This document shows positions 5,807 to 58,200 of a stretch of DNA of 64,000 nucleotides, piece by piece. How positions within the stretch are numbered: the stretch's first letter is position 1; each line of letters begins with the position of its first letter. The stretch lies in contig CAMDPX010000006.1 in assembly GCA_945905295.1 (NCBI GenBank), positions 22-64,021 of the forward strand, read 5' to 3'. Origin of the DNA: Planctomyces sp. SH-PL62. Lineage in GTDB: Bacteria > Planctomycetota > Planctomycetia > Planctomycetales > Planctomycetaceae. A program made the translations under genes and the position numbers. A model generated the notes under the pieces. That model made no database searches. It was given only the letters and a program-made list of their open reading frames with translations, and had not been told where the DNA came from.

Positions 5807-7801
5807 ATGACCAACAACAAGTCTGCATCAACCGCAACGACTCAGCCGGGCGACGAGCATCGCTTTGACAAGTGGATCGCGTTGCTGGCCTTGATCGCGA
5901 TCAGCGGGTATCTGGTCGTGAGATTCGGCGGCCACGCGGATGACTCGCTCGGCCCATTCACGTTGACCGAATGGCCGTTGATCACCGCGCTGGCGGGAGG
6001 CGGTCTGCCGCTGGTGGCCGAGCTGACTTGGAAACTGGTACGTCGCGAGTTCGGCTCGGACCTTTTGGCCGGCATCTCGATCGTTACGTCGATCGTTTTG
6101 GGCGAGTACCTCGCGGGGACGCTCGTCGTGCTGATGCTCTCTGGCGGCGAGGCGCTCGAAGCCTATGCCATGCGGAGCGCGTCGTCGGTCCTCGCCGCGT
6201 TGGCCCGGCGCATGCCGTCGCAAGCTCATCGCAAAACAAACGAGACGATTCACGATGTCGCGGTCGATCAAGTCGTCGTCGGCGACACGCTGCTGGTGTT
6301 TCCGCACGAAGTGTGTCCGGTCGACGGTACGGTGCTCGACGGGCACGGCACGATGGATGAGTCGTTCCTCACCGGCGAACCGTATCTGATGCCGAAGTCC
6401 TCCGGCTCGACGGTCATCTCCGGCGCACTGAATGGCGAAGCGGCGTTGACGATCCGAGCGGACAAGCTCGCGGTCGATTCGCGGTACGCTCAGATCATGC
6501 ACGTCATGCGCGCGGCCGAAGAGCGTCGCCCGCGCCTGCGTCGCTTGGGCGATCAACTCGGCGCGTTCTACACACCGCTGGCGGTCGGACTCGCGTTGCT
6601 GGCATGGGGGCTAAGCGGTGACGTGCATCGGTTCCTCGCCGTGTTGGTCGTCGCGACACCCTGCCCGCTGCTGATCGCGATTCCGGTAGCGATCATCGGT
6701 TCGATTTCGTTGGCGGCTCGACGCGGCATCATCATTCGCGATCCGTCGGTACTCGAACGGATTGAGACCTGTCGCACGGCGATCTTCGACAAGACCGGCA
6801 CACTGACGTACGGGCAACCGGCGCTGACCGAGATCATCGTCGGAGACGGGGTCGGGAGTCTTTTTCAGGTCGGCCCAATGTCAGCAGAATTGCATCGCGA
6901 ACTGGATGGCCGACCTGAGAAAGACTCCCGACCCCTTTCTGCGGACAAAGCGTTGTCGCTGATCGGAAGCGTCGAGCGGTACTCAAAGCATCCGCTCGCG
7001 GCGGCGATCCTGAACGTCGTTCGCGAGCGACACCTCGCGCTGCAAGACGCCACTGAAGTTCACGAACTTCCCGGCCAAGGATTGACCGGTGTTGTCGCTG
7101 GTCGCCGCATTCGCATCACTAGCCGAGGCAAGCTGGTCGGGACGGAGTCCCAACCTACAACCGTCGACCTCCCGCCGCAGGCGGCCGGGATGGAGTGCAT
7201 TGCGATTATCGACGACCTGATCCCGGTGACTTTGCGGTTCCGCGATCAGCCGCGAGCGGATGGGGCGTCGTTCGTGAAACATCTCGCGCCGAACCATCAC
7301 TTCCAGCGGGTGATGATCGTCTCCGGCGACCGCGAGTCGGAGGTCCGTTATCTCGCCGATCTTGTCGGCATCCACGAAGTCCACTTCAGCCAATCGCCCG
7401 AGCAAAAGCTGGCCATCGTGCGGGCCGAAACGCAACGAGCCAACACCGTCTTCGTCGGCGACGGGATCAACGATGCACCGGCACTGACGATCGCGACCGT
7501 GGGCATCGCGTTCGGCGGCAGCAGCGACATCACCTCCGAGGCCGCGCACGCCGTGATCCTCGACAGCTCGCTGAGCAAAGTGGACGAGTTGCTGCACATC
7601 GGCAAACGTCTGCGGCGGATCGCGCTGCAAAGCGCGGTCGGCGGAATGTTGCTGAGCCTCGTCGGAATGCTTCTCGCCGCGTCCGGTCACTTGCCGCCGG
7701 TCGCCGGCGCGATCGCTCAAGAAGTCATCGACTTGCTGGCCGTGTTGAACGCACTGCGCGCGGCGCGGTCGTCTGGAAGTCTGACGGATTTCGGCTCGTA
7801 G
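5807..7801 (+). CDS. heavy-metal P1B-type ATPase, TPCP-motif (P1B-5-like) subtype
   Basis: DKTGTLT phosphorylation motif, [11 protein letters not shown] hinge, TGEP-type actuator (FLTGEPYL), TM motif [11 protein letters not shown]. No N-terminal CxxC metal-binding domain and no C-terminal extension. Confidence 0.85.
6848..6935. repeat. intragenic palindromic element (GGGGTCGGG family) inside the ATPase CDS
   Basis: Arms GGGGTCGGGAGTCTTTTTCAGGTCGGCC (6848..6875) and GGCCGACCTGAGAAAGACTCCCGACCCC (6908..6935) match at 27 of 28 positions. Translated in frame as ...[30 protein letters not shown]... Confidence 0.85.
7135..7158. repeat. half-site of REP family A inside the ATPase CDS
   Basis: GGTCGGGACGGAGTCCCAACCTAC is identical to the right arm at 57395..57418. 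Translated as ...[10 protein letters not shown]... No left arm nearby. Confidence 0.8.
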
Positions 7802-10965: not shown

Positions 10966-11092
10966 GGGGTCAGGTCTTCAAATTTCATTTTTGGCCTCGC
11001 GAATGAGACGTGATGTGATTTGGAATGGTGATGTGGAATCTGAGTCAGGGGCGGATTGTGGGGCCAAAAATGAAATTTGAAGACCTGACCCC
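10966..11092. repeat. REP-like palindromic element, GGGGTCAGG family
   Basis: Arms GGGGTCAGGTCTTCAAATTTCATTTTTGGCC (10966..) and GGCCAAAAATGAAATTTGAAGACCTGACCCC (..11092). This produces mirrored MKFEDLTP pseudo-ORFs on both strands. Confidence 0.9.
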
Positions 11093-12530: not shown

Positions 12531-12540
12531 CCTTGCCTCC

Positions 12541-12604
12541 GTAGCCACGTTCGCCAGAACGTGGGTGATCTCTCAAAAGCCCACGTTCTGGCGAACGTGG
12601 CTAC
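12541..12604. repeat. REP-like palindromic element, family C (GTAGCCACGTTCGCCAGAACGTGGG ... CCCACGTTCTGGCGAACGTGGCTAC)
   Basis: Perfect 25-nt arms. A diverged copy lies at 33298..33349. Confidence 0.9.
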
Positions 12605-12622
12605 GTCTACAAGAACTCGATC

Positions 12623-17048: not shown

Positions 17049-17128
17049 GTAGGGTGGGACCAGCGGAGCGCCGGCCCACCGCATTGATTGAAAAATGGTG
17101 GGCCGGCGCTTCGCTGGTCCCACCCTAC
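17049..17128. repeat. REP-like palindromic element, family D (GTAGGGTGGGACCAGCGGAGCGCCGGCCCACC ... GGTGGGCCGGCGCTTCGCTGGTCCCACCCTAC)
   Basis: Long near-perfect arms in the spacer between the DUF1553 gene and its DUF1501 partner. Confidence 0.9.
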
Positions 17129-20479: not shown

Positions 20480-20577
20480 GGGGTCAGGCACCGCAAAATT
20501 AAAAATTGGCGGAACCAAGCGTTGGAAGTACTCAGGACGTAGCTCCGCCAATTTTGAATTTTGCGGTGCCTGACCCC
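20480..20577. repeat. REP-like palindromic element, GGGGTCAGG family
   Basis: GGGGTCAGGCACCGCAAAATTAAAAATTGGCGGA ... TCCGCCAATTTTGAATTTTGCGGTGCCTGACCCC, in a divergent intergenic region. Confidence 0.9.
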
Positions 20578-20648
20578 GGACCTCCTGAGGCTTCGATGAC
20601 TCATCGGAGTCGCTGCTGAAAACCGAGAACGATTTGGAAGACAGGGCC

Positions 20649-23600
20649 ATGAAACGATCCTCGCTGGTGGTATTCACTCTGTGGTTTGCGGCCTGTGCGT
20701 CGGCGCGCGCGGAGGAGATTTCGTTCAACCGGGATGTTCGGCCGATCTTGTCGGCGAATTGTTTCGCGTGTCATGGCTTGGATGCCAAGCAACGGAAGGC
20801 GGACTTGCGGCTGGATGTGGCGGACGGCGCATTGGCGGAACGGGACGGCCATGTGGCGATCAAGCCGGGCGACCTTGCCAAGAGCGAAGTCTGGCGGCGA
20901 TTGATCTCAGAGGATGCCGATGTCGTGATGCCTCCGCCGTCCACGAAGAAGAAACTCACGGCCGAGCAAAAGGCGACGATTCGGAAATGGATCGAGCAAG
21001 GTGCTCCGTATCAGAAGCACTGGGCGTTCGAGACACCGACGAAGACCGCCGATCCGCCGGTGCAGAACGGAGCATGGGCGAAGAACAGCATTGATCGCTT
21101 CGTGCTCGCGCGATTGGACAAGGAAGGGCTGGCACCGCGGCCGGAGGCGAGTCGTGCGACGCTGATCCGCCGCGTGGCCTTCGCGGTGACGGGGTTGCCG
21201 CCGACGCCGAAAGAGGTCGCGGAGTTTGAAGGGGACTCGTCGCCGCAGGCTTACGAGAAGATGGTCGATCGGTATCTCCAGTCACCGCGATACGGCGAGG
21301 AGATGGGCCGGCATTGGCTGGACGTCGCGCGGTATGCCGACACGCACGGATTGCATCTCGACAATGAACGCTCCATGTGGGCGTATCGCGATTGGGTCAT
21401 CAAGGCGTTCAATGCCAATCAGCCGTTCGACAAGTTCACCGTCGAACAACTCGCGGGGGACTTGCTGCCGAACCCGACTCAGGACCAGCTCATCGCGACG
21501 GGATTCAATCGCTGCAACGTGACCACCAGCGAAGGGGGAGCGATCGAAGCCGAGTGGCTCTACCGGTACGCCGTGGATCGAACCAGCACGACGGTGCAAA
21601 CCTGGATGGGGCTGACCGGCGGATGTGCCGTCTGTCATGACCACAAGTACGACCCGCTGTCGGCGCGTGAGTTCTATTCGCTGTATGCGTTCTTCTACTC
21701 AGCCGCCGATCCCGGCATGGATCGCAACACCAACACGACCGATCCGTTCTTCAAGCTCTCGACCGCGGAACAAAAAGCCGCGCTGACGAAGTTGCAGGCC
21801 GATGAGACTGTCGCCAAGCAGCAGCTTGAAGCGATCGCCGCGCGCGTCGCTTACGCGGACCCGGCCGATGCTCAACCGCCACCAGCCAAGCAACCGGTCA
21901 GGGATGTCTGGCTTGATGACGTGTTTCCGAATGGCTCAAAGGTGACTTGTTCTTCGCGAAACAATTCCGTGTGGGCCACGGCTCCCGAAGTCGATCCGCC
22001 GCTGGGCCGTCGAGCCCTCAAACAATTCGGAGCCTCGAACTATCACGACAAGTTCGAGAACTCGTTGCAGCCGTTTGTGATTCCGGAGAATCCGAAACTC
22101 TTCGTGTGGGTCCGTCTCGACGAATATGAACCGTCGCAAACCCTGTCGCTGGAATTGATCACCAGCCGAGGTAACCGCCGTTTCCTCTGGGGGAATCCGA
22201 AGAATTACGGAGCGGCCACCACCGACAAGAGTTGGCTCGGAGAAGCACCGCCATCGAATCAGTGGGTTGAACTCGTCGTTGCCGCCGACAAATTGGACCT
22301 GCAACCAGGAGACACCGTCCGCAGCGTGTCTCTCGCACAATTCGGCGGCGTGGCGTGGTGGGACGGCTTAATCATCACGGGTGACACATATCCCGCGACG
22401 GACCTGCGCTCGTCATTCACCGCCTGGTGGAAAGACCGAGCCGGCAAAGAGACACCCGGCATTCCCGGCGAATTGGCCGCGTTTCTCAAAGCCGGCCCGA
22501 CACTAACCCGAAGCGCAAGCGAGGAGAAGCCCGAAGACAAGAAGTCCAACGAGCTCAAAGACAAGTTGCGACAGTTCTATTTGGCGTTCGTCGCTCGCGC
22601 GAGTGACGCGGAACTTCAGCAGCATCAGCAAGCGTGGCTCGCGGCGAACTCGGCCAAGACGTTGCTGGAAGAAGCGATTCCCGGCACGTTCATTTTCAAA
22701 GACCTCGACAAACCGCGCGAAGCGTTCGTGATGCTGCGCGGCCAGTACGACAAGCCGGGCGAGAAGGTGGAGCCGAACGTCCCCGCCGTGTTTCCACCGT
22801 TGAAGAAGCCGACGACAGAGTCTCGATCGACGCGGCTCGATCTCGCGAATTGGCTGCTGGCTCCCGATCACCCGCTGACCGCTCGCGTCACGGTGAATCG
22901 CTTCTGGCAACAACTCTTCGGCACGGGACTGGTGAAGACCAGTTACGATTTCGGCTCGCAAGGGGAACCGCCGAGCCATCCCGAACTGCTCGACTGGCTG
23001 GCGATTTGGTATCGCGAGAACGGTTGGGACACGAAGGCTCTGGTCCGGCTGCTGGTCACCTCTGCGACGTTCCGCCAAGACACGCGAGTCGCTGCTGACC
23101 TGCTGCGGCTTGATCCAGAGAACCGGCTCTACGCACGCGGCCCACGCTTTCGGCTCGATGCGGAGCAGATTCGCGACAACGTGCTTTACGTCAGCGGTCT
23201 CATCAATCTGGAAATGGGGGGCCGCGGCGTGAAGAGTTATCAGCCGCCCAATCTTTGGGAACCGGTCGGATACTCGGACAGCAACACGCGGTTCTATCTG
23301 CAAGATCATGGCCCGGCGATTTACCGGCGCAGCATCTATGCGTTCCTCAAACGAACCGCTCCGCCACCGTTCATGAGCAACTTCGACGGCCCGAACCGCG
23401 AACAGTTTTGCACGCTCCGCGAACGGAGCAACACGCCTCTGCAAGCGCTGCAACTGCTGAACGACACACAACACTTCGAATCGGCCCGCGCGTTCGGCGA
23501 ACGCATTCTCTCAGAAGGTGGCGAGACGGCGGATGAGCGGATCACGTTCGCCTATCGAGCAACGTTGTCCCGCTCACCGAAGCCCGAAGAACTGGCCGTT

Positions 23601-26752: not shown

Positions 26753-26762
26753 TCCCAAGTCA

Positions 26763-26860
26763 GGGGTCGGGTGTTCGGTTTTTCGGAATTGGCGGGATGA
26801 AGTCTCACTTGCAACCCAAGCGTCGTCCCGCCAATTCCGAAAAACCGAACACCCGACCCC
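26763..26860. repeat. REP-like palindromic element, GGGGTCGGG family
   Basis: GGGGTCGGGTGTTCGGTTTTTCGGAATTGGCGGGA ... TCCCGCCAATTCCGAAAAACCGAACACCCGACCCC. Confidence 0.9.
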
Positions 26861-26888
26861 GGATCCGAAACCTCAAACGAGAACAACC

Positions 26889-55280: not shown

Positions 55281-58200
55281 TCAGCGTTCGCCGCTGACAA
55301 ATTTCGCATACGCAGCGGCTCCCCATTGGCGGAACAGTTCCGCCGCTCGATTCCGGTACGAGACGGCTTGCGCACTTGATCCTGTCGGATCGCTCGCCGC
55401 AGCGGCCAAGTCGTTGGCCATCGCTTCGATCTGTAAGTAGCCGAATTGCGAGGCCGCTTTCATCGCCGCTTCGTACCCGGCCAGAGCGGCGTCGCGCGAG
55501 CCGCTCAGCCTCGCGAGTTCCGCGGCGAGCAACCGCTCTTTGTGCGCGAAGTTGTGCGGACAGCGGGACGCCCACTTCGCCAATTTCTTCTGAGTCGATC
55601 GGACCGCCGCGACGTGACCGCGGCGTGCGAAGCCGGTCGCACGAGTGGTCAGTGCCGCCCGAATCAATCCCGTGAGAAAATGATGCTCAGCCGAATGCAA
55701 CATGCCGGGCGATTCCTTGAGGTACTTCGCCGACGCCTGCGACGTCACCCAGGCCGCGTCGTATTCGCGCCACAGATACTGCGTCAGCATCTTGTTGACG
55801 AAATAATAGTGCGTGAAATGCCGCGATCCGAACTGCGACAGCTTCGCGACGTAGGCGGCTTCATCAAACGTGCCGTCGCTGAACGTGTCGCGGCCGCGTG
55901 TCTCGCCGCGCAGATTGCGAATCGTCTGTCGCACCGATTCGATCGCGGCAATCGGCTCGCGCAAGCTGAGTGGTTTCAGAAACGCGAGGAACTCATCGGA
56001 CTTCGCGAGGATCTCTGGAAACGGCACGCCGCGCATCAGCAGGCTTTGCGTCGTCCCCGCGCACGAGCAGCCGGTGTGAAACAAGTCGCCGGTGGCTCGG
56101 CCCGATTCATACGTCGTGCGCCACAACGACTCGGCTTCGGTCGCTGGACGCATCCAACTGGTGCCGAAGTAGCCGACGACGAAACTGACTTCAGGCCGTT
56201 GCCGTTCCTGCTGGTACTGATCCACCAACGACAGCGCGAACCGGCCATAGTCATCGCCGAGCGGATGATTGCCCATCACGCCCCCTTGGAAGATCGCTCC
56301 GAAAACCATCCAGGCGATTGCGCAGTCAGGCGTGTTGCCGTGCTTCAGACATTCGTTGACGATCTTCGTCGAGACGGCAACGCAGAGTTCGGGACGGACC
56401 TGATACGCGGCCTTCGCGCACGCATTCGTCAATCGCACGGCGGTTGCCAGCCGAGCGTCTTTCATCAACGGCAAATTGAGCAGTTCGGCAGCCGGACGTT
56501 TGCCGATGCGGAACTTGGCCTTGATGAAGTCGATGATGAACAGCGGCGGAATAAAACCCTTCGGCAGCGACAAGCCGAAGAGCGCCACCGCCTCGCGGCC
56601 GACGGCATACGCATCCGCGAAGCGAGCCATATCGGTCAGGAAGTGAATCAGCTTCTCGTAAGCATCGGCCTTGTCGTTGTCCGACTGAGCCAACCGGACC
56701 GCGCTGCGATAAAAGTCTTCGGCCCGATCGAAGGCGAGCACCTGCACTGCCTGCTCGCCCGCCTTCACGTAGTAGCGACCGGCCTTCACGAATTGATCGG
56801 AGCCTTCCAAATGCAGCGCGATGTCTTCGGGCTTCGCTTCGTCGGTCGATTCCAGCGACGCCGCGAGTCCGGCGTGATGCGTCTTCCGCGTCTCCTTCGC
56901 CAAATGATTGACGACCGATTCGCGAATGCGATCGTGAAACGCTTCGACCTCGGCCTGCATTCCGGGACCGCTGGATCGAATCAGGTGATCGACTCGTAGC
57001 ATCGTCGTCAGTCGCGGCGAGACCTGCTGCAACTGAGCCGCTTCGAGAATGTTCTTCAATCGGGTCGGATGCCCGGCCACCGCAACGACGTGCAAGAATC
57101 GCTGAGCCTCTTCCGACAACCGACCGACTCGCGCCCACAGCACATCATCGAGTCCCGTGCCGCCAATCGCGGACAGATCGAGTCCCGCGTTCAAGTGCCG
57201 AGCCAACTCGTAAACGAAATACGCGCTGCCGCCCGATTGCTCGACGATGCGATCGGCGTTGGCTTCGACGTTCGGGAGGTCGTCGCGTAGCAATCGCCGC
57301 GCGAGCGTGCGTGTCTCGGCGGACGTGAGCGCTTCGACTTTCAATTCGCGCCACGAAGCGGAGTAGGTTGGGACTCCGTCCCGACCCTGCGACTGGTCGG
57401 GACGGAGTCCCAACCTACTTTCGCTGCTTTCCGCCGCCGTCAGCGCTTTCAGGCAGTCGCTGACGCCGATGTACTCACTGCGATACGCCAACAGCAGCAG
57501 CAATCGCGGAGGCTCGGCCGAGGTCAACAAGTCGGTCAGCAGCGCCGCGCTGTCGGTGTCTCCCCACTGCAAGTCATCCAGATAGACCACCAGCCGCTTC
57601 CGCTTTCCGATGCGTGACAACAGCTCGCGAAAGGCTTGGAACGCATCGCGCCGTAGTTCTCGCAAGTCGCTCGAAACCGCCTGCTCGCGGCAGAGCTTTT
57701 CGATCAGCTTCACTCGCTTGAGCACCGGAAAAATCCGCGCGAGCGCCGCGACGTTCTTCGGCAAGAGATCTGCCGCCGGAGTCGTAGGCTGACGCAGATA
57801 CTGAGTCACCGCGTCGATCAGCGAGTCGATCCCTTTGTACGGCACCGATTCTTGTTCGTAACAGCGGCCGGTCAGGACGACGGTGTTTTGACGATGCGAC
57901 AGATCATCCAGAAAGTGTTGAATCAACGTGCTCTTGCCGGCCCCCGACCGGCCATGCACGCGACAGACGATGGTGCGGCTGGCAACCGTTTCCTCGAACG
58001 TTTGATTCAATTCTTCGAGATGCCGTTCGCGTCCGATGAAGGGCATCGACGTCGGAGCGAACGAGTCTTCCTCACCCGCGCTCGTCTCGTCCGAAGCAAA
58101 CGCCGCGACAATTTCGGAACCGTGCGGCCGCTTGGCTGGATCACGCTGCAGCAACTTCACGCACAGAGCGTTCAAGTCGTCGGGCACTCCAATCACAATG

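Follow-up and report, generated by a model that had tools for sequence, protein, structure and literature searches.

How does a gene for a conserved metal-transporting enzyme come to hold two pieces of repetitive DNA within its reading frame? The 64,000-nucleotide stretch of Planctomycetaceae DNA analysed here (the window) contains a gene for a heavy-metal P-type ATPase, and an earlier note on this DNA had pointed to a long palindrome and a separate REP half-site in the region that encodes the nucleotide-binding domain (N domain), reading both as tolerated insertions into N-domain loops. That reading agrees with our results, in that both segments derive from repeats, keep the frame and are missing in most orthologues. 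With a probability of roughly 0.85, the two segments entered the ATPase gene as selfish palindromic repeats, with the frame kept, at tolerant surface loops of the N domain. The features are collected in Table 1.

Table 1. The ATPase gene, its two repeat-derived segments and related elements. Positions refer to the window, except for the last row, which is on contig C115 of the same genome.
Feature	Position	Strand	Basis or remark
Heavy-metal P1B-type ATPase gene (P0001), 664 aa, intact	5807..7801	+	Stop-free ORF, TIGR01525, Pfam, dN/dS
DKTGT phosphorylation motif, residues 328-332	6788..6802	+	Translation; D328 aligns with D426 of Legionella CopA (3rfu)
Likely inserted unit, 93 nt (GAC + 88-nt palindrome + TT)	6845..6937	+	Flank profile; G015 allele
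Left arm of palindrome (GGGGTCGGGAGTCTTTTTCAGGTCGGCC), 28 nt	6848..6875	+	Arm pairing and window search
Variable 32-nt loop of 88-nt element	6876..6907	+	Loop differs between genome copies
Right arm of palindrome, one mismatch to left arm, 28 nt	6908..6935	+	Arm pairing and window search
SKHPL nucleotide-binding motif, N domain	6983..6997	+	Translation; 15 residues downstream of insert end
Right half of family-A GTAG-type REP doublet (GGTCGGGACGGAGTCCCAACCTAC), read as VGTESQPT	7135..7158	+	0 mismatches to 272-arm family
Reference full family-A doublet, perfect 25+25-nt palindrome	57362..57419	+	Right arm identical to 7135-7158
Y1 transposase gene, 221 aa, RAYT-like	C115:20611-21309		Between full 88-nt copies 20541-20627 and 21343-21429

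The host gene is an intact member of its class. Its product scores 471.6 bits against TIGR01525, the heavy-metal P-type ATPase model (cutoff 346), includes the Pfam domains E1-E2_ATPase and Hydrolase, and has all the marks of a P1B-type ATPase, namely the DKTGT, SxHP and GDGxNDxP motifs in addition to the above-cutoff HMM score. The ATPase motifs, including H395 and P396, are invariant in alignment A1. ATPases of the P1B-5 subgroup carry (T/S)PCP in a metal-binding transmembrane helix, often together with a C-terminal hemerythrin domain. Residues 284-287 of the present protein are TPCP, which is also invariant in A1, and Pfam finds no hemerythrin domain; the P1B-5 label, which comes from the TPCP motif, is tentative. 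The closest orthologues occur in Planctomycetaceae MAGs ("Planctomyces sp."), and the next closest in Schlesneria.

Purifying selection on the gene is strong. Over 516 ungapped codons of a codon alignment, dN/dS is 0.051 against congener G018 (dS 0.32) and 0.07-0.09 against other, more distant congeners. The reading frame is kept in every insert-bearing congener allele, apart from the nonsense codon of congener G015. An independent metagenome assembly (ENA ERZ4201065; L112) has the same gene with 2 differences in 1995 nucleotides and both segments intact, which makes an assembly artefact unlikely. In the window, the upstream gene encodes a hybrid histidine kinase/response regulator, and Pfam matches nothing in two further neighbouring ORFs; no functional link emerges from these neighbours. 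A scan for promoters and terminators around the gene found none above shuffled expectation. Gene neighbourhoods vary among close relatives: of the contigs that carry orthologues P0005 and P0004 (L109 and L110), one shows an upstream RND-type ACR_tran gene and the other a downstream MgtC/DUF4010 gene.

The first segment (site 1) is the palindrome. Its two 28-nucleotide arms are complementary at 27 of 28 positions and enclose 32 nucleotides, as described previously, and our translation of residues 348-377 is identical to the earlier one. The palindrome does lie just downstream of DKTGTLT, at a distance of 13 codons from the last T rather than about 15. Sequences matching the arm with up to three mismatches are found at only these two places in the window, and none of 100 shuffled sequences matched. 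As RNA, a 98-nucleotide stretch around this copy has a predicted folding energy of -67.9 kcal/mol (z = -9.9).

Comparison with nine same-genus genomes that contain the orthologue (82-92% identity) shows what is extra at site 1. Six congeners (G005, G013, G014, G001, G016 and G002) are empty at this site, with the short linker TEIIVGEQLSQEKALSLIG and an interval of 126 nucleotides from DKTGT to HPL, versus 210 nucleotides in the window. G015 has the same 88-nucleotide element, in which the arms are conserved and the loop is different. When 93 nucleotides are subtracted from the G015 allele, a linker of 13 residues remains, the same length as in empty alleles, and this argues for a clean 31-codon insertion without target duplication. 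The window allele has a further 9-nucleotide deletion to the left of the element, for a net gain of 84 nucleotides. G018 instead has another palindrome at site 1 (GTGAGCGGCAGGGCGCTAGCCCCCGGTC...), from a family with 60 arms in the window's genome. Net gains at this site, from comparing alleles, are 84, 93 and 60 nucleotides.

In a phylogenetic tree, the window gene groups with that of G015 at a weak bootstrap support of 61% and then with that of G018 (98%). The first grouping fits a single ancestral insertion, and judging by these sequences the 88-nucleotide element probably entered the gene in a common ancestor of the window species and one congener. The G015 gene (SXKJ01000130.1; L010/L040) has a CAA-to-TAA change at the position of Q155 in the actuator-domain region, at about nucleotide 1951 of L010. 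It also has a long branch, with dN/dS of 0.17-0.28, and is probably a decaying pseudogene.

A wider comparison gives the same picture of site 1. Equally long linkers that lack REP similarity, the pattern that the earlier note had named as evidence against insertion, were not seen in orthologues: besides the six empty congeners, the 18-residue spacing is found in 105 of 113 scorable sequences from a set of the best 120 matches plus the query, obtained in a search of 5.8 billion proteins. All exceptions within this set are close relatives. P0002 is the window allele from another sample, and P0003 and P0006 correspond to G015 and G018. P0004 and P0010 have a third repeat family at site 1 (GTAGCCACGTTCGCCAGAACGTGGG, as at window positions 12540-12605). 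P0007 reads EQNDSRPLSEDKA there, and its DNA keeps only GACTCCCGACCCC+TT, a 15-nucleotide footprint of the right arm. In this last orthologue (L111, JGI 3300020197), site 2 has a footprint as well (GTAGATTGG), and the two footprints look like in-frame remnants of the 88-nucleotide element and of a family-A doublet.

The second segment (site 2) belongs to family A, which has the consensus GTAGGTTGGGACTCCGTCCCGACC with a 5' GTAG head. Each arm of family A forms a 9-base-pair hairpin, and a genome search located 272 arms, of which 114 close inverted pairs were formed alongside true singletons. The match in the ATPase gene is real, because it is identical to the right arm of the complete doublet elsewhere in the window and was reproduced by no shuffle. 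The earlier note had called it a lone right arm. It is indeed a family-A repeat, but it did not arrive as a half-site. A full doublet is present at the same site in P0005, with flanks identical to those of the window (L109: GTAGATTGGGACTCCGTCCCGATC-A-GGTCGGGACGGAGTCCCAACCTAC), and the window allele equals the P0005 allele minus 36 nucleotides, with the loss located between short GGTCG repeats. The apparent lone arm is thus a half-deleted doublet. The view of site 2 as an insertion also needs adjustment: the segment is repeat-derived and in frame, but it replaces a native linker of about 10 amino acids, so that the loop has 11 residues versus 10.

Alleles at site 2 are diverse. The native segment has 15 residues (TKEASDERVARILEQ) in Schlesneria and many others, and 10 residues in G005. 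P0017 has a family-A doublet like that of P0005, with a spacer, and only the right half of the doublet is present in P0004 as well as in the window. G018 and G014 share a GTAGGGTGGGTCGAG... doublet (9 arms in the window's genome), and G013 has a GTAGGGTGGGACCAGCG... doublet (6 arms, as at window positions 17049-17128). Two other palindromes, one in G015 and G016 and one in G002, have no match in the window's genome and are candidate repeat families. Some alleles are short forms that end in PTFE or PTFD and retain a CCTAC tail.

Both sites are in loops of the N domain, according to alignment and a structural model. Legionella CopA (3rfu) aligns to residues 103-349 and 379-645 of the query, and its residues 447 and 448, which flank the gap, are adjacent; the insert therefore appears as a clean extra 29 residues that start 21 residues after the phosphorylated Asp. 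In an AlphaFold2 model built with 39 sequences (mean pLDDT 74), residues 349-373 are coil between a strand (334-345) and a helix (379-390), and residues 445-452 are coil between a helix (440-445) and a strand (462-468). Both coils have pLDDT below 50, in keeping with the loop placement proposed before. For the insert, this low value may reflect its absence from the other aligned sequences. Neither insert touches the conserved SKHPL and PGQGLTG motifs.

The site-1 element is one of many copies in its host, whose genome is an 8.6-Mb draft in 476 contigs with 59.8% G+C. Counting inverted pairs of the terminal arm GGGGTCGGGAGTCTTTTTCA (up to three mismatches) that are 83-105 nucleotides apart yields 180 paired elements and 46 solo arms, many of the latter at contig ends. 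The arms are nearly invariant and the loops vary between copies. Inner stems covary between subfamilies (CATGCCGC/GCGGCATG, CAGGCCGCC/GGCGGCCTG and CAGGTCGGCC/GGCCGACCTG). The ends have the form AC|GGGGTCGGG...CCCGACCCC|TT, and the conserved AC and TT flanks are not direct repeats. The element is also polar: among 155 copies oriented by C at -1 and T at +1, position -2 is A in 99% and position +2 is T in 97%. Pairing bases farther outside are more weakly conserved. Three other palindromes in the window (10966-11092, 20480-20577 and 26760-26863) begin with GGGGTC(A/G)GG like the 88-nucleotide family and differ in their inner arms, which suggests a superfamily that has only the terminal bases in common.

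Genes for Y1 transposases were sought by motif in six-frame ORFs and then by phmmer. The gene on C115, which has full 88-nucleotide copies on both sides, encodes a protein that scores 40.7 bits against PF01797 (Y1_Tnp; cutoff 23). Its best NCBIfam match is NF047646 ("REP-associated tyrosine transposase", REP_Tyr_transpos) at 70.2 bits, below the curated cutoff of 80. C115 is likely to be the master locus of the family, and the arrangement of gene and repeats indicates that its Y1 transposase probably mobilises the 88-nucleotide elements. Paralogues of this type on C56 and C23 have no 88-nucleotide copies within 700 nucleotides. Family A has its own associated genes: its doublets flank the Y1 transposase genes at C225:10385-11197 and C147:135-947. 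Against PF01797 (cutoff 23), the C225 product reaches 25.2 bits, with REP_Tyr_transpos as its best NCBIfam match (58.5 bits, below the cutoff of 80), and the C147 gene was identified only through its phmmer similarity to C225 (2.3e-147).

Two assignments of the 88-nucleotide element were considered and rejected. One orientation ends in ...CCCCGTC, reminiscent of the CGTC-tagged REP superfamily. However, members of that superfamily, as characterised in the part of PMC3733652 used here, have 8-9-base-pair stems, 4-5-nucleotide loops and AT at the first stem positions, a description that sets the CGTC families apart, and an unpaired GTAG or CGTC end tag was not found on the 88-nucleotide family. 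The element is also not a classical MITE, because comparing filled with empty alleles reveals no duplicated target bases and a Y1 transposase gene accompanies the family.

Copies within genes are common. Among the 180 elements, 46 fall within stop-free ORFs that extend for 80 residues or more on each side, and in 38 of these 46 both sides have coding-type composition in the same frame (GC1 ~0.66, GC2 ~0.47, GC3 ~0.72). About 21% of the family is thus in frame inside genes (about 38/180). The earlier note regarded two repeat segments in one gene as unusual, and in this genome they are not, given this share and several genes with two or three copies. ORFs on C179, C357 and C317 have two copies each, with a coding signature on both flanks, and a single ORF of 2445 amino acids at C29:21805-29139 has three in-frame copies. 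An ORF on C278 also has two, both just below the GC3 cutoff on one side. In seven host genes, the element is between or within Pfam domains. These encode a second CPC-type P-type ATPase (C20:41403), a Ser/Thr kinase, a class-V aminotransferase (cysteine-desulfurase-like), an amine oxidase, a GT2 glycosyltransferase, Mfd and a PSCyt2/PSD1 protein. The in-frame element of the second ATPase (C20:41403-41487) follows GNWRWL, in the N-domain loop homologous to site 2.

The lengths and frames of these copies are informative. Core lengths of 1 mod 3, which with 5 extra bases make a multiple of 3, are enriched within genes (28 of 38, versus 52 of 142 elsewhere; Fisher p = 8e-5). The frame that meets a TGA in the right arm is used by no in-gene copy. 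Orientation relative to the host gene shows no bias among the in-gene copies (20 versus 16). Together, these patterns are the signature of copies that insert at random and are then selected for keeping the frame open. The length and frame pattern also argues that the elements are translated, rather than removed from the mRNA or the protein.

Under the insertion reading, the RAYT-like Y1 transposase of C115 would move the 88-nucleotide family, and the palindrome would enter as a unit of about 93 nucleotides without target duplication. A GTAG-type REP doublet would have entered site 2, where a 36-nucleotide in-frame deletion would then have left the 24-nucleotide arm. Both inserts may survive because the frame is preserved and the loops accept extra residues. 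The insert peptides are presumably translated, and the pump presumably still works.

Perhaps, instead, an insertion disabled the pump, and the window gene is a young pseudogene in which stop codons are still to come. G015 gives some substance to this idea. It is the sole other genome with the 88-nucleotide element at the site, and its nonsense codon and relaxed branch, with the raised dN/dS, mean that the insert could be mildly harmful. However, the window gene is intact over 664 codons and has dN/dS of 0.051 against G018 and 0.07-0.09 against farther congeners, all insert-bearing congener alleles keep the frame, and a second sample holds a near-identical allele, so that loss of the pump is quite unlikely. 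The opposite idea is that the element was co-opted, either because the mRNA hairpin tunes translation or mRNA stability, or because the peptide loop gained a function. The very stable predicted fold, the conservation of the arms between the window and G015 while the loop differs, and the repeated hits to the same loops in the genus would be expected in that case. Yet the same element occurs in unrelated proteins (the kinase, the cysteine-desulfurase-like enzyme, Mfd and the GT2 protein), different families replace each other at the site, and relatives show stepwise in-frame deletion down to footprints, which is the behaviour expected of neutral passengers. We consider co-option quite unlikely.

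It is also conceivable that the site-1 segment is removed before the mature protein is made, by RNA excision, ribosome bypass or protein splicing, which would restore the normal short linker. A strong hairpin could in principle promote bypass, and this is the only feature in favour. Against it, the two flanks share a reading frame only when translation continues across the element, given the net gains at site 1; frame-keeping lengths and an avoided stop frame would be a pointless filter if the element were removed; and intein or intron features are absent. Removal is accordingly most improbable. Hardly any weight can be given to an assembly artefact or a chance resemblance either. The genome is a 476-contig draft with many repeat copies at contig ends, but no shuffle reproduced either match, the independent assembly has nearly the same sequence, and one congener carries this element too, with another loop sequence.

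A further proposal builds on selfish insertion, and we put it forward tentatively as a possible but doubtful extension. The two N-domain loops might be true landing pads, where a resident REP hairpin draws in further REP families, either by Y1-mediated insertion or by recombination. Each site would then pass through serial replacement and in-frame decay. Within one genus, the confirmed repeat families at these same two loops number at least four, and two or more additional palindromes occur there; the second ATPase (C20), a paralogue, has the 88-nucleotide element at the loop homologous to site 2. If the landing pads are real, they would naturally generate surface loops that differ between lineages on a conserved pump.

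The locus suggests that selfish palindromic DNA can add peptide loops to a conserved enzyme without breaking the gene, with enzyme function presumed from the sequence. Empty, filled, half-deleted and footprint alleles are all present in close relatives, which makes this a natural system for distinguishing targeted from selection-filtered intragenic REP sites. The inserts also mark two loops in the N domain of P1B ATPases as apparently able to accept 20-30 inserted residues. In REP-rich Planctomycetaceae, gene annotation and the scoring of homology will encounter many such in-frame inserts.

Several known systems resemble the elements described here. The part of the work of Di Nocera, De Gregorio & Rocco (2013; PMC3733652) used here reports GTAG REPs in the PVC superphylum, including Rhodopirellula baltica, and treats the 5' GTAG head as the hallmark of RAYT-associated REPs. 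Intragenic REPs are reported there from many species, most of all from Opitutus terrae, like the present host a member of the PVC superphylum, and from Rickettsia conorii, in which they are the Rickettsia palindromic elements (RPEs). Intragenic singletons or dimers, usually dimers, encode 20-30 residues, and some genes are hit twice. Family A is like the GTAG REPs and REPINs (PMC3733652; Bertels & Rainey 2011) in its imperfect palindrome of about 24 nucleotides, its GTAG head and its inverted doublets. The doublets that flank the C225 and C147 genes are also like a REPtron, a RAYT gene flanked by its own REPs. In contrast to the known intragenic GTAG REPs, several families here have entered one and the same pair of loops in a single orthologous gene across a genus, with decay intermediates (doublet, half and footprint). 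Neither a site-specific allele series nor P-type ATPase hosts are described in the portion of PMC3733652 on which we draw.

RPEs (Ogata et al. 2000, 2002, via the part of PMC3733652 used here) are palindromes of about 100 nucleotides that, like the 88-nucleotide element, are inserted in frame in many unrelated, seemingly functional genes and encode surface peptides. The host here differs, being a free-living planctomycete with a large genome from another phylum and with another base composition, and the sequence families are presumably unrelated; the likeness shown is one of mode of action. RPE-4 and RPE-6 (CGTC-type) have no dedicated transposase, as far as that same part of PMC3733652 describes them, whereas the 88-nucleotide family flanks a candidate gene.

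The TIRYTs, terminal inverted repeats (TIRs) that flank tyrosine transposase genes, are similar to the 88-nucleotide family in having long inverted arms, no GTAG head, moderate abundance and a Y1 gene flanked on both sides, as at C115 (TIRYT features as given in the part of PMC3733652 used here). However, about one fifth of the 88-nucleotide copies are intragenic and in frame, which the same part of that paper does not describe for TIR families. Classical MITEs (Nezha, Correia/NEMIS and RUP) are likewise small and non-coding, with terminal inverted repeats and occasional in-frame insertion. They differ from the 88-nucleotide element, which shows no target-site duplication between filled and empty alleles and is associated with a Y1 (HUH) transposase; no DDE insertion sequence sharing its ends was found. 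Intragenic, in-frame REPs were already known, and the present locus involves no new kind of element or mechanism. What is new in comparison with these systems is a P1B ATPase as host, the very high intragenic share of an 88-nucleotide family of non-GTAG type, and the recurrent turnover of repeats at two loops.
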